Source: Elusimicrobiota bacterium (GTDB lineage Bacteria; Elusimicrobiota; Elusimicrobia; UBA1565; UBA9628). From it: a stretch of DNA of 64,000 bases. The stretch is from positions 73,713 to 137,712 of the forward strand of contig JAPLKL010000051.1 of assembly GCA_026388095.1 (NCBI GenBank), in the 5' to 3' direction. The position numbers were made by a program, and so were the translations under genes. The number at the start of each line of letters is the position of its first letter. The stretch's first letter is position 1. The notes beneath the pieces were generated by a model. That model ran no database searches, was not told the origin of the DNA, and saw nothing but the letters and a program-made list of their open reading frames with translations. This document shows positions 18,120 through 40,401 of this stretch, piece after piece.

Positions 18120-19595
18120 ATGTCACGACTTCTCTTTGTCTACTCACAAGACCAGATATATTCATCACAGCATCCGATCGAGTTCTTTGAATACGTGCCA
18201 CTCGGGATCTCTTACATCAGCGCGCTCCTCAGGCAGCACGGTTGCGCCACCGACCTGGCCGTACTCTCCCCCTCAGCTCCCAGAAAGAGCCGGAACATTC
18301 TTGAGCGCAAGATTGCAGCCTTTGGCCCGGACATAATTGGATACTCTGCCGTCAGTACCCAGTTTCCCTTCCTCTCATCGGTCGCTGCTGAAGTCCATGC
18401 CCGGCGCCCGACGCTGTTTCAGATCATAGGCGGAGTTCACGCCACACTCGCGCCGGAAGAGGCTATCAAAGGGCCCTTCGACGCTCTCTGCGTCGGCGAG
18501 GGCGAACTCCCCCTCCTCGAATTGACGAAAACCCTGGCAGCAAAGTCCCCGCTAGCGCCCATTCCGAACCTCTGGATCAAGCACAATGGCGGCATCCTCG
18601 AATCTGCACCTCGGCCATTTCTGGACGATCTGGATAGCCTGCCATTCCCGGATCGAAGCATCTGGACCCAATGGATTCATGTCCCGACCTCGCCGCGGTG
18701 GTCCATCCTCCTCGGCCGCGGTTGTCCTTTCGAATGCACGTACTGCAGCAATCACGCCTTGAAACGCCTGGCGCCCGGCCCCTACGTTCGATTCCGCTCA
18801 CCAGAGAATATCCTGCGCGAGCTCGATGCGCTGACTGCTCAGTATCCGGCAATGCGGGAATTCTATCTGGAAGTCGAGACCATAGGACTGCGCAAGGACT
18901 GGGCGCTGGCGCTCTGCGCAGCATTGGCGGATTCCAACGCGAAACGGCCCGCCCCCTTGGCGTTCTCGGCGAATCTCCGGATATCCCCCGGCTGCGATTT
19001 CGTGGGACTCTTCGCCGCCATGAGGAAAGCCAACTTCACTCAGGTGAACATCGGCCTGGAATCCGGCAGCGAGCGTGTCCGCCGCCAGATCCTGCACCGC
19101 ATCTACTCGAACCAAGACGTGCTAAGAACCGTCGCGCAAGCGCGCGATGCCGGCCTGCGGATATCCCTGTTCAACATGGTCGGATTGCCTGGGGAGACAC
19201 CAGCCGACTTCCAGGAGACAGTGGCGGTCAACCGCGCTTGCCGCCCCGACAACCACAGCACGTCGATCTTCTACCCTTATCCGGGGACTCGCCTGCATGA
19301 GCTTTGCGCTGAGCGCGGACTCCTGCCGCCCGCGGGCCTGCGTGGCGACGTAGAGCGCTGCGCCCCGTGTCTGCAGTTGCCGGAATTCCCCCCGCGCGAG
19401 GTCCGCCGGGCCTTTGTCTGGTTCGATTATCATGTCTACAAGGGGATCCGGCCGATGCACCGCATCCTACCGCGGGTCGCCGGCGCATGGCTGCGTGCCC
19501 ATCCAAGGCTCATGAGCCTAGCCCGTCGCATCGTGCGCAATACGACCGTTGCCCGCGCGATCCGATTGGTGCCGCGATTGCGCAGCTATTTCTAG
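18120..19595 (+). CDS. B12-binding domain radical SAM enzyme (class B rSAM, probable methyltransferase)
   Basis: N-terminal cobalamin-binding domain, CPFECTYC CxxxCxxC motif. Confidence 0.8.
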   Translation: MSRLLFVYSQDQIYSSQHPIEFFEYVPLGISYISALLRQHGCATDLAVLSPSAPRKSRNILERKIAAFGPDIIGYSAVSTQFPFLSSVAAEVHARRPTLFQIIGGVHATLAPEEAIKGPFDALCVGEGELPLLELTKTLAAKSPLAPIPNLWIKHNGGILESAPRPFLDDLDSLPFPDRSIWTQWIHVPTSPRWSILLGRGCPFECTYCSNHALKRLAPGPYVRFRSPENILRELDALTAQYPAMREFYLEVETIGLRKDWALALCAALADSNAKRPAPLAFSANLRISPGCDFVGLFAAMRKANFTQVNIGLESGSERVRRQILHRIYSNQDVLRTVAQARDAGLRISLFNMVGLPGETPADFQETVAVNRACRPDNHSTSIFYPYPGTRLHELCAERGLLPPAGLRGDVERCAPCLQLPEFPPREVRRAFVWFDYHVYKGIRPMHRILPRVAGAWLRAHPRLMSLARRIVRNTTVARAIRLVPRLRSYF

Positions 19596-19601
19596 GGGCC
19601 G

Positions 19602-20573
19602 TTACCTTTTGGCGAGGTAATCCGAGACCATGGATTCTATTCCTTGGTCCAAAGTCTTAGGGGGCGCCCAGCCCATCGTCTTGCGGAACTTCTTGCTATC
19701 GACGAGCAGGGAATCGGAGAGTCGCTTCAATGCTCGCCCGAGGTGAGGAAAGATCGCCCCGGCCAGGCTTAGGCACGGTCTTGGGACCATCCACAGGTTC
19801 GCCTGCTTCCCCATCGCGCGCGCGATCTTCCGAATGAGGTCCGGGGTGGAAACATCCATGCCGTCGCTGATGACAAACGTCTGATTGGCCACTGCGGGCG
19901 CCGTAGCGCAAAGCGTCAAAGCTGCGACAAGGTTTTCCATCCCGATGAAGCTGCGCGAGTTGCGGATGGCGCCCAAAGGCAGTATGCGTCCACTCTGAAC
20001 CGCATCCAGAAGTCTTTGCATATTACCCTTGACCGGCCCCGGACCATACACCAGCGGCGGGCGCAGGACGACTGCTTCCATGCCCGTGTTTCGGCAGGTA
20101 TACCGTAGAGCCTGTTCCGCCTCCCATTTGCTCAATGCGTAAGGCTCGGCCGGCCGCGGCGGAGATCCCTCATCGAATGGGACCGAGTCGGGAGTGGAGA
20201 GTCCGCAGATGCCGATAGTGCTCAGAAACACAAAGCGTTTCACGCCGGCCTGAACCGCGGCCTTGGCGAGGGTTTGAGTGCCCATGACGTTGACCCGGCG
20301 GAATTCCAGCAACGGATCCAGAACTGTCTCGCGGAGCACATGGGCTCGTGCGGCGAGATGGATGACCACATCGACGTCCCGCAAAGCGGCATGCCAATCA
20401 GTCTGGGGACCGATATCAGAGACTTCAATCAATTCCTCTGGCGCCGCTCCTCCCCGCCCGGGCGTCGCCAGATTGCGAACAGTTCCGCGCACGACATGGC
20501 CGCCCGCCGAAAGGGCGCAGCACAGATTGTGCCCGACAAAGCCATTGGCGCCGGTGATCAGGGCACGTTGCAT
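19602..20573 (-). CDS. NAD-dependent epimerase/dehydratase SDR
   Basis: ITGANGFVG, YALSK YxxxK. Confidence 0.75.
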   Translation of the reverse strand: MQRALITGANGFVGHNLCCALSAGGHVVRGTVRNLATPGRGGAAPEELIEVSDIGPQTDWHAALRDVDVVIHLAARAHVLRETVLDPLLEFRRVNVMGTQTLAKAAVQAGVKRFVFLSTIGICGLSTPDSVPFDEGSPPRPAEPYALSKWEAEQALRYTCRNTGMEAVVLRPPLVYGPGPVKGNMQRLLDAVQSGRILPLGAIRNSRSFIGMENLVAALTLCATAPAVANQTFVISDGMDVSTPDLIRKIARAMGKQANLWMVPRPCLSLAGAIFPHLGRALKRLSDSLLVDSKKFRKTMGWAPPKTLDQGIESMVSDYLAKR

Positions 20574-38849: not shown

Positions 38850-39009
38850 GGGGAAATACTGCGTGCTTCGTCGCTATTGTATCAAATGTATATCCCAGGA
38901 CAGCACGGCGGCCGACAAGTCTCCGGCGACGATGACTCCAGCGCAAATGACAAACGGTTGGTCTCTCGGGATTGCGGACTGATTGCAGCAACACCGCCGC
39001 ATTCATCGA

Positions 39010-40401
39010 CTACTTGCGCTCTTGGAGCTTGGCGGTCGCGGGCTTTTGGAAGGTTACCGTTTTGAAAACCGACTCAAGCTTAAGCCCCTGCCTTTTGGCC
39101 AACGCCTCCAATTTCCTGGTCACAGTTTCAACGAACTCCACATCGGACATGTTGGTCAGGTTCACATGGAAATCCTGCCGGTCGCCGATCCTCGATAGAT
39201 ATTCCACTTCGTCGGCTATCCGGCCGGCCTTCTTCGCCCATTCATAGATTGGGGTCCCAGGCTGAGGCAGCAGGAACCCCACACTGGGATAGATATCGCA
39301 CTCTTCACAGATATCGAGGGTGAGTTGGATGGTCTCCGGGGTTTCCTGGGGATACCCGAAAATGACGCTGGCAAGGGGGACGACATCCCCCTTCCATAGC
39401 ACCTTTGCCTGCTCGATGAACTGGTCGACGCTCATCTTCTTTCCCATCGCAGCCAGGATCTCCGGGCTCCCGTTTTCCAGGGCAAACCCGATATGATTGC
39501 AGCCGGATTCCTTCATGGCTCTTATCAAATCCAAATGCTCTGCACGGAACAACCCCGCCCGGGCGTCCGCCCCCCATTGAATCTTGAAATCCAGGGCCTT
39601 TATCGCCTTCACCCTGGATTCAACACTCTTTAAGGTGGGGAACGTCAATTCATCCCAAAATGCGACGAAGTCACACCGGTACCTGTCGTGCAGTCTTTTG
39701 ATTTCCCCGACAATGGCCGGCTCCGAATACCTTCGGTATTTCTGACCCAGAAAAACGTGGTAGCAGAAGGTGCATTGAAAAGGGCACCCGCGCGCCGAAT
39801 TCAACGGAAAAGACACCACCTTGTCCCCGGAGAAGGAATTGGAATTGACATCGGAGTATCGGGCGTATTTCTCTAGGTTGAATATATCCCAGTCAGGAAA
39901 TCCGATGGTGTCCAAATCCGGGATGATGGCGCGCTTGCCCGTGAAATTGATCTTGCCGTCCTTCTTGAAAGCAATCCCCTTGACCTCAGAGATAGGCATG
40001 CGCCGTTCCAGAGCTCTCAACAAATCCACAATCGTGATATCGGCCTCGCCCAAAACCGCAATATCCACCTCCGTGTTCGTCAACAGCAGCTCCGGGATCG
40101 AGGTCGCTGCGGAATTGCCGCAGATGATGGTCGCATCAGGCCGGATCCGCCTTATCATCCGCGAGATCTGATCGACGTATCTGTACCCGGTGACGATGCA
40201 CCCGAATGCGTACACATCGTAATCCTCTCGACCCAACATGGCCTCCAACCCGTCCACGGAGATGTTGTCGACAGCCATGTCAAACAGGCCGAACTCAAGA
40301 CCTTGCTTTTTGACGGCGGTAAGGACATATCCCAGCCCGACCGGCAAGTGCTGCCTCTTGGCCTCAGGCCTTAACGCGATGTTGATGAAGGCGATCTTCA
40401 T
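39010..40401 (-). CDS. B12-binding radical SAM enzyme (third copy)
   Basis: CPFQCTFC CxxxCxxC, N-terminal cobalamin-binding-like domain; GAGGAA RBS before internal ATG. Confidence 0.8.
   Translation of the reverse strand: MKIAFINIALRPEAKRQHLPVGLGYVLTAVKKQGLEFGLFDMAVDNISVDGLEAMLGREDYDVYAFGCIVTGYRYVDQISRMIRRIRPDATIICGNSAATSIPELLLTNTEVDIAVLGEADITIVDLLRALERRMPISEVKGIAFKKDGKINFTGKRAIIPDLDTIGFPDWDIFNLEKYARYSDVNSNSFSGDKVVSFPLNSARGCPFQCTFCYHVFLGQKYRRYSEPAIVGEIKRLHDRYRCDFVAFWDELTFPTLKSVESRVKAIKALDFKIQWGADARAGLFRAEHLDLIRAMKESGCNHIGFALENGSPEILAAMGKKMSVDQFIEQAKVLWKGDVVPLASVIFGYPQETPETIQLTLDICEECDIYPSVGFLLPQPGTPIYEWAKKAGRIADEVEYLSRIGDRQDFHVNLTNMSDVEFVETVTRKLEALAKRQGLKLESVFKTVTFQKPATAKLQERK

Follow-up and report, generated by a model that had tools for sequence, protein, structure and literature searches.

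Why should one bacterial surface-glycan locus carry three radical enzymes of the B12-binding type, and on which sugar would they act? Class B radical S-adenosylmethionine (SAM) enzymes are known mainly from the synthesis of antibiotics, peptides that ribosomes make and that are modified after translation (RiPPs), lipids and cofactors. The stretch that raises the question is 64,000 nucleotides long (contig JAPLKL010000051.1, positions 73,713 to 137,712; 'the window' hereafter, numbered from its first letter) and comes from an Elusimicrobia bacterium, in which it forms a surface-glycan locus of mosaic make-up with three divergent class B radical SAM genes, which we call rSAM1, rSAM2 and rSAM3. 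An earlier note on this DNA had set all three in an O-antigen or capsule context. We find the real interest to be narrower: rSAM3 lies inside an apparent operon for a pseudaminic-acid-like nonulosonic acid (NulO), and its homologues make up a large, conserved and uncharacterised B12-radical SAM family that, judging by its gene neighbourhoods in many phyla, is a predicted accessory of NulO pathways of the pseudaminic type; rSAM1 and rSAM2 stand for two other class B families found in this type of locus.

The proteins encoded by rSAM1 (18120-19595, plus strand), rSAM2 (21652-23583, minus strand) and rSAM3 (39010-40401, minus strand) match NCBI Elusimicrobia proteins of 491, 643 and 463 amino acids (aa), respectively, at 100% identity from end to end; all three of these come from one 151,020-bp contig of a metagenome-assembled genome. 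Each carries a CX3CXφC motif (CPFECTYC, CINHCCYC and CPFQCTFC), as the earlier note had reported, and each matches the radical SAM profile PF04055 with 85.8, 41.4 and 55.4 bits (Pfam gathering cut-off 29.5), which places all three in the radical SAM superfamily. This domain is preceded in every case by a match to PF02310 (61.3, 32.6 and 50.6 bits; cut-off 32.1), so that all six domain matches exceed the gathering score and the proposed N-terminal domain of cobalamin-binding type is borne out. A scan of the whole window returned exactly these three B12-binding/radical SAM genes; a fourth CxxxCxxC, at nucleotide 1186, was discarded, as it sits in an off-frame open reading frame (ORF) of a GC-rich gene, that is, in a non-coding frame. 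Longer ORFs at the three loci (18087-19595, 21652-23874 and 39010-40506) were also rejected as the true genes, because the NCBI proteins and all homologues begin at the starts of the shorter ones. Pairwise identity among the three proteins is 23-27%; they therefore belong to three different subfamilies, and recent paralogy is rejected.

AlphaFold2 models of rSAM2 and rSAM3, built from family alignments, have predicted local distance difference test (pLDDT) scores of 89.0 and 86.5, respectively. In both, a beta-hairpin comes after a five-stranded Rossmann domain, and next come a partial TIM barrel and the C-terminal helices, which form a long bundle in rSAM2 (residues 477-640). This is the layout of class 1 cobalamin-dependent radical SAM enzymes (PMC13331322), and by their models the two proteins have the class 1 architecture of the OxsB/TokK/TsrM type. 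The B12-binding domain of rSAM2 is marginal by sequence, but the Rossmann domain in its model supports membership of class B. The top Foldseek ranks for both models are occupied exclusively by class B enzymes: OxsB, TsrM, MgmA, CysS, AprD4 and TokK for rSAM3, at query-normalised template modelling (TM) scores of 0.61-0.70, and CysS, MgmA, TsrM, OxsB and TokK for rSAM2, at about 0.45-0.5 on the same normalisation; the E-values for OxsB, TsrM, MgmA, CysS and TokK are 1e-13 to 1e-20. In the rSAM3 family, the invariant N-terminal residues are concentrated in the loops that follow Rossmann strands 3-5 (GCIVTG at 67-72, GNS at 95-97 and E119), where the corrin is positioned in solved enzymes (PMC13331322). 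Strong conservation of the Rossmann loops is found for the window families in general, and it lends indirect support to a putative cobalamin-binding function.

How closely do the three resemble enzymes of known function? We scored them with the NCBIfam class B equivalog models for BchE, HpnJ, HpnR, PhpK, KedN5, TsrM, BzaD, MgmA/MJ_0865, ApyD, RiPP C-methyltransferases, the ladderane enzyme and Sden_1168. The best score for rSAM1 is with ApyD (104.6 bits; cut-off 750), for rSAM2 with rSAM_ocin_1 (112.7 bits; cut-off 281.85) and for rSAM3 with BchE (129.7 bits; cut-off 481.35). PDB sequence and profile searches returned distant matches only, to CysS, TokK, MgmA (structure 9CCB; PMC11796369), AprD4 and OxsB, the methylases CysS, TokK and MgmA being among the nearest. 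Together with Foldseek, these searches place the three proteins at superfamily level only. TokK, CysS, MgmA/QCMT (9CCB), TsrM and OxsB, the best Foldseek or profile matches, have the same domain order as the window enzymes, but are only 13-19% identical to them, and their substrates (carbapenams, polyketide or nonribosomal peptide intermediates, protein glutamine, tryptophan and a nucleotide) include none from glycan or NulO biosynthesis.

The earlier note had likened the three to GenK and Fom3. Together with GenD1, these are class B C-methyltransferases of sp3 carbons, acting on sugar-like or cytidylylated small molecules in the gentamicin (GenK, GenD1) and fosfomycin (Fom3) pathways of actinomycetes, where they work alongside class I methyltransferases. 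Our comparison with them is by description; the related curated models KedN5 and PhpK score far below their cut-offs on the window enzymes. The cytidylylated substrate of Fom3 makes an attractive analogy to a cytidine monophosphate (CMP)-activated NulO. None of the three proteins joins a family of the GenK, Fom3, TsrM or OxsB type, all NCBIfam scores lying below the cut-offs, but none joins a defined non-methylating subfamily either. Their structural neighbours comprise both methylases (CysS, TokK, MgmA, TsrM) and non-methylases (OxsB, AprD4).

Which sugar pathway surrounds rSAM3? The gene belongs to a minus-strand operon running from 47858 to 37860, overlooked in the earlier note, that appears to encode a pseudaminic-acid-like NulO pathway. 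Its first gene (47028-47858) specifies a cytidylyltransferase of the CMP-NulO synthetase type (PF02348, 97 bits) and is followed by genes for a PseG-like UDP-sugar hydrolase (46009-47025; TIGR03590 at 132.6 bits, short of its cut-off, 153.55), a NeuB-family nonulosonic acid synthase (44966-46012; PF03102, 251 bits; NeuB model 328.8 bits and PseI model 234 bits, the latter against 340, both below the equivalog cut-offs), a formyltransferase-like protein (44271-45092; weak PF00551 match, fmt model 41 bits), a DegT/PseC-like aminotransferase (43256-44281; PF01041, 196.9 bits; PseC model 131.5 bits against 423.5) and a WbqC-family protein (42529-43269; PF08889, 274.7 bits). Next come a TylF-like methyltransferase (41780-42562; PF05711, 44.3 bits), a class I methyltransferase (41095-41766) with 57-65% identical homologues in three homologous loci (L054, L063 and L069; such loci are numbered with the prefix L), a PIG-L family deacetylase directly upstream of rSAM3 (40418-41098; PF02585, 92.7 bits), rSAM3 itself and, as the last gene, a GDP-fucose-synthase-like short-chain dehydrogenase/reductase (SDR; 37860-38849; PF01370; NF047922, 307 bits, below the cut-off of 500). 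The start of the formyltransferase-like gene is uncertain: its ORF opens with TTG and shares 126 nucleotides with the end of the NeuB gene, so the true start is probably one that lies downstream. A single 593-aa protein of L088 joins a formyltransferase-like domain to a PseG-like (GT28_C) domain.

The Pfam families DegT, GT28_C (weakly), NeuB and CTP_transf_3 are all present in the operon, and the PseF model reaches 24.8 bits in the window against a cut-off of 205.7. On the plus strand, the window also encodes a true PseB, the inverting UDP-N-acetylglucosamine 4,6-dehydratase (28806-29876; TIGR03589, 492.6 bits, above the cut-off of 407.75). With the canonical pathway of PseB, PseC, PseH, PseG, PseI and PseF the window shares this PseB, the PseG-like hydrolase, the NeuB-family synthase, the DegT aminotransferase and the CMP-NulO-type cytidylyltransferase. 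It differs in having no GNAT of the PseH type among the operon genes scanned, that part being filled by the Fmt-like and WbqC genes, and in adding the PIG-L protein, two methyltransferases and a radical SAM enzyme. From these matches the operon appears to encode a divergent pseudaminic-acid-type NulO pathway with heavy tailoring, and the sugar relevant to rSAM3, and probably to rSAM2, would be a pseudaminic-acid-like NulO rather than a generic O-antigen hexose.

The association extends well beyond this genome. There are more than 1000 rSAM3 homologues; the top 120 are 55-73% identical (mean column identity 68%) and come from Omnitrophota, Nitrospirota (including the magnetotactic Ca. Magnetominusculus), Planctomycetota, Bdellovibrionota, Desulfobacterota and archaea. 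All three of the homologue contexts inspected are NulO loci, with NeuB, CTP_transf_3, DegT, an amidotransferase resembling Asn synthase and a putative transferase of the LIC12162 family. Scanning a single genome for each GTDB species yielded 76 loci, whose neighbouring genes were identified by tblastn with the window proteins. NeuB is present in 40 of the 76; among the 36 that are fully flanked (at least 8 kb on both sides), it lies within 10 kb in 25, and any core NulO marker is found in 27. Core markers share the strand of the rSAM3 homologue in 103 of 110 instances, and PseB or PseF stands immediately beside it, inside the biosynthetic block, in many loci. A PIG-L deacetylase co-occurs in 11 loci. 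A class I methyltransferase of about 205 aa accompanies rSAM3-family genes in 13 loci (L029, at 8266-8883; also L034-L036, L042, L053, L054, L060 and L069), often immediately adjacent and with as much as 62% identity from one phylum to another. This methyltransferase offers a further candidate for a fixed partner of the family, distinct from the methyltransferase at 41095-41766.

Several class B genes in one locus are likewise recurrent. At least two occur in 22 of the 76 loci and three in 6 of them; L086 and L001 each carry three next to NeuB. The clustering is thus a repeated feature of uncultured, mostly anaerobic lineages, and the density that had been called unusual is so by comparison with textbook O-antigen loci, but not within this group.

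The clearest context comes from a cultured organism, Clostridiaceae bacterium 35-E11, with a complete genome (CP121688.1), in which the rSAM3 homologue is 44% identical. The gene order there is flagellin, Maf, methyltransferase, PseB, rSAM, PseF, PseH, PseI, PseG and PseC; the rSAM3 homologue is therefore an accessory gene in a complete pse flagellin-glycosylation island. Unlike the window operon, this island (L029) carries a GNAT. Acetivibrio mesophilus N2K1, A. straminisolvens JCM 21531 and a number of metagenome-assembled genomes of Bacillota show a flagellin/Maf neighbourhood as well, and rSAM3 homologues of Clostridia sit within complete pse/Maf/flagellin islands.

A further gene of the window may belong to the same system. 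The ORF at 34067-35926 (plus strand) encodes a 619-aa protein with no Pfam match. Along its whole length it shares 37% identity with the product of L001 11380-13137, a gene translationally coupled downstream of an rSAM3 orthologue; homologues occur in 11 of 20 loci with close rSAM3 orthologues. The L001 protein has a weak match to PF27859, the sole link through which the 619-aa protein might be a LIC12162-family putative NulO transferase; BLAST of the 619-aa protein against a bona fide LIC12162 protein (from L088) gave no significant match. LIC12162 is a transferase family that adjoins neuABC (PMC6679464).

What of rSAM2? It closes a minus-strand string headed by an RmlD-like gene (at 27727) and continuing with a family 4 glycosyltransferase (GT4; 26404-27690), an SDR resembling 4,6-dehydratases and epimerases (25386-26417; PF01370, 175 bits; dTDP-glucose dehydratase model 168 bits, below cut-off), a class I methyltransferase recognised by Pfam (24539-25393, with its true ATG at 25393) and a second one of the Methyltransf_23 family (23580-24542). 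The SDR and first methyltransferase genes overlap by 8 nucleotides, the two methyltransferase genes by 4 and the second of these and rSAM2 by 4. This is the copy that the earlier note had described as translationally coupled to two class I methyltransferases; rSAM3 was rejected as a candidate for that description, as its immediate upstream gene encodes the PIG-L deacetylase.

Full-length homologues of rSAM2 (about 640 aa) number around 100. Among their neighbourhoods, drawn from three inspected contexts and a metagenome scan, at least 12 loci have a 45-53% identical homologue of the 24539-25393 methyltransferase directly adjoining the rSAM2 orthologue, usually with an SDR and a GT4 next; the GT4, downstream of rSAM2 orthologues, is co-conserved with the module, and homologues of the Methyltransf_23 protein adjoin rSAM2 orthologues in L086, L090 and L095. 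Of 14 long rSAM2-orthologue loci, 9 have NeuB, LIC12162, PIG-L or PseB no more than 10 kb away, and L090 combines relatives of all three window enzymes (40%, 52% and 39% identity) with NeuB and LIC12162. Judging from this conservation, rSAM2 and the 24539-25393 methyltransferase form a predicted fixed pair, often near NulO genes. In a set of metagenome loci, more distant rSAM2-like paralogues (30-35% identity) form arrays in which two or three class B genes stand in tandem (L113, L118, L120, L122, L124, L128, L131, L137-L139 and L160), often preceded by a pair of family 2 glycosyltransferases (GT2) related to the window gene at 17276-18067; this looks like a separate recurrent cassette.

The rSAM1 family is larger still, with more than 3300 homologues, and its setting is different. 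The five homologue contexts inspected are general glycan loci with GT2 or GT4 transferases, Wzy and class I or TylC3-like methyltransferases, and GT2 adjoins the homologue in L083, L169 and L090. In the window, a GT2 gene (17276-18067, plus strand; PF00535) lies directly upstream of rSAM1, an SDR gene of the epimerase/dehydratase family (19602-20573, minus strand; PF01370, 132 bits) converges on it, and a further GT2 gene lies at 20707, after the SDR. We take rSAM1 to be a putative, more general glycan-locus enzyme tied to GT2/GT4 transferases. The closest rSAM1 orthologue loci on long contigs are L083 (12667-16345) and L169 (12770-16448), where the gene stands beside three consecutive sugar C-methyltransferases of the Methyltransf_14/13 (TylC3-like) type, an SDR resembling 4,6-dehydratases and a nucleotidyltransferase. 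One deoxysugar pathway may there draw on both conventional and radical methylation machinery.

What chemistry might be at work? Most characterised class B radical SAM enzymes are methylases, methyltransferase genes consistently keep company with all three, and the Rossmann loops of the rSAM3 family are conserved; for these reasons we favour C-methylation as the most likely chemistry of rSAM3, and place it just on the probable side of even. The three proteins would be tailoring enzymes acting on sugar building blocks: a 5'-deoxyadenosyl radical, derived from the [4Fe-4S] cluster and SAM, would abstract hydrogen from an unactivated sugar carbon, and methylcobalamin on the Rossmann domain would then donate its methyl group to that carbon. 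For rSAM3, the substrate would most likely be an intermediate of the Pse pathway, namely the PseB product, or a free or CMP-activated NulO, and the class I and TylF methyltransferases and PIG-L deacetylase beside it would contribute O- or N-methyl and N-acyl changes. The data show domain content, fold, membership at the level of the superfamily, operon structure and a gene association that crosses phyla; cobalamin binding, methyl transfer and the exact substrate we infer. The earlier note is thus supported in part, as to class B tailoring of a glycan, and the C-methylated sugar that it had predicted is a plausible product.

A bolder proposal would have the rSAM3 family alter the carbon skeleton of Pse-type NulOs, or of a 6-deoxyhexose precursor, by cobalamin-dependent radical C-methylation or other C-C bond formation, giving branched or chain-extended ('ten-carbon') ulosonic acids that many anaerobic bacteria and archaea would carry on their flagellins and surface glycans, with rSAM2 and rSAM1 performing further, distinct radical steps on the same hyper-modified glycan. 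Taken as a whole, we consider this unlikely. Mass spectrometry has provided evidence for rare 'potential 10 C' or 'higher carbon' ulosonic acids (Kleikamp et al., PMC8157484), which are a lead for backbone C-methylation and no evidence for it.

Several observations weigh against C-methylation of a NulO by cobalamin-dependent enzymes. A PF02310 match and a predicted Rossmann fold do not prove cobalamin binding, and the match of rSAM2 only just clears its threshold (32.6 against 32.1 bits). AprD4, to our knowledge, has a similar N-terminal domain and uses no cobalamin, so the fold alone is no proof. None of the three proteins reaches any of the NCBIfam equivalog cut-offs, their scores being 3-10 fold short (105-130 bits at best, where the cut-offs are 250-750); the top models mix methylases (RiPP C-methyltransferases, P-methyltransferases) with non-methylases (BchE, HpnJ, AprD4), and there exists no sequence signature that would set methylases apart from other class B enzymes. 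Gene neighbourhood cannot single out which intermediate is the substrate of rSAM3, and for rSAM1 the link to NeuB or NulO genes was absent from all five contexts inspected. Finally, we know of no reported C-methylated NulO structure, and found none in the literature searched.

Are all three enzymes methylases? At least one of them may instead be non-methylating, and the main candidate for such a reaction is that of AprD4, a radical SAM 1,2-diol dehydratase that acts on an aminosugar together with the reductase AprD3: the radical enzyme would dehydrate a sugar diol and an adjacent SDR would reduce the product, the outcome being deoxygenation; a radical epimerase, or a ring rearrangement of the OxsB/HpnJ kind, are the other options. 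AprD4 (6fd2) has a similar two-domain fold and ranks in the top five when neighbours of rSAM1 and rSAM3 are sought by sequence and structure, and an SDR lies near each window enzyme (19602-20573, 25386-26417 and 37860-38849), as AprD3 does with AprD4, and follows rSAM2 orthologues in L087 and L088. Both circumstances count against methylation throughout, as does the presence of BchE and HpnJ, which are no methylases, among the top NCBIfam matches. However, the AprD4 model NF033070 gives just 45.9, 20.4 and 50.2 bits for rSAM1, rSAM2 and rSAM3, where the cut-off is 500; in the minimal clostridial island PseB is not joined by a further SDR, yet a methyltransferase is present; the Rossmann loops of the rSAM3 family are strongly conserved, as expected for a cofactor site; and CysS, TokK and MgmA score equally well or better in profile searches. 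A non-methylating member among the three is the chief alternative to C-methylation and a possibility that we take seriously, while thinking it on balance rather unlikely.

Whether methylases or other radical enzymes, the three could act late, on an assembled lipid- or protein-linked glycan or on its N-acyl groups, and not on nucleotide-sugar or NulO intermediates. rSAM1 homologues do lie between genes for glycosyltransferases, Wzy and flippases, and not beside those of sugar-nucleotide enzymes, and close rSAM3 orthologues are translationally coupled to the putative LIC12162-like NulO transferase; but with rSAM3 homologues in many loci placed right beside PseB or PseF within the biosynthetic block, and with GenK and Fom3 acting on soluble small molecules, late action seems improbable to us. 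Least likely, and disfavoured here, is that the three are unrelated passengers (lipid, RiPP or cofactor enzymes) of a horizontally acquired glycan island, as the mosaic composition of the locus, its AAA_14/DUF4143 ATPase and the RiPP and lipid enzymes among the best NCBIfam matches might suggest, since a glycan context was found in every homologue locus inspected, across many phyla, the radical SAM genes overlap tightly with sugar-pathway genes, and precursor peptide or lipid genes are not nearby.

The mosaic character of the window is visible in its composition: the sequence is GC-rich (53-73%), and GC content across the mosaic locus runs from 48 to 67%. A low-GC island at 29929-32029 (47.7%, against 60-73% elsewhere) holds a third gene of the Wzy_C family (29929-31152) and a 273-aa ORF without a Pfam match (31208-32029), and probably arose by horizontal insertion in recent times. 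GC content is 53-57% in the region of the NulO operon (37.8-47.9 kb), below that of the window ends. Ahead of rSAM1, a plus-strand block comprises genes for a SIS/CBS isomerase (at 10420), an RmlA-like nucleotidyltransferase (11458), two Wzy_C proteins (12336 and 13516), a Wzx-type flippase (14733) and, in the middle of the glycan locus, the AAA_14/DUF4143 ATPase (16122-17273); this ATPase and an AbiEii-type nucleotidyltransferase toxin upstream (5708-6544) are hallmarks of mobile or defence-associated DNA beside the glycan genes. Glycan assembly is represented by the three Wzy_C paralogues, the flippase and a fused transmembrane and nucleotide-binding domain ATP-binding cassette exporter (12336-16007, 29929-31152 and 32060-33877), and the window probably encodes parts of more than one assembly route. 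Beyond the NulO operon lie genes for an initiating Glycos_transf_4 protein (49037-49999) and a PglF-like membrane-anchored 4,6-dehydratase (49869-51905), together with two further ORFs (48072-49031 and 51902-53224). The PglF-like protein would be a second UDP-N-acetylhexosamine dehydratase besides PseB, which hints at a bacillosamine-type sugar as well.

Has such an enzyme been described before? In the literature searched, no paper contained both 'radical SAM' and 'nonulosonic'; the few that combined 'radical SAM' with pseudaminic or legionaminic acid were unrelated or dealt with enzymes outside class B, and nothing relevant came up for radical SAM enzymes with O-antigens or C-methylated polysaccharides. 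Papers on pse loci, among those searched, do not mention a B12-radical SAM gene; a 2026 survey of clostridial pse flagellin islands makes no mention of B12 or cobalamin, nor does a 2026 review of B12-radical SAM enzymes mention sugars, glycans or polysaccharides.

Sialic-acid-like sugars govern flagellar assembly and the recognition of bacteria by phages and the immune system. If our reading is correct, a B12-radical SAM family within Pse pathways would bring an unrecognised and chemically demanding modification to these sugars, in hosts as varied as Elusimicrobia, Omnitrophota and those cultured Clostridia that have islands for flagellin glycosylation. An rSAM3 enzyme that alters the carbon skeleton would provide an enzymatic origin for the 'higher carbon' ulosonic acids seen by mass spectrometry (PMC8157484). 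The question is testable in cultivable hosts, such as Acetivibrio mesophilus N2K1, A. straminisolvens JCM 21531, Clostridiaceae bacterium 35-E11 and Pelosinus, and a positive answer would tie the surface-glycan structure of anaerobes to the availability of cobalamin.

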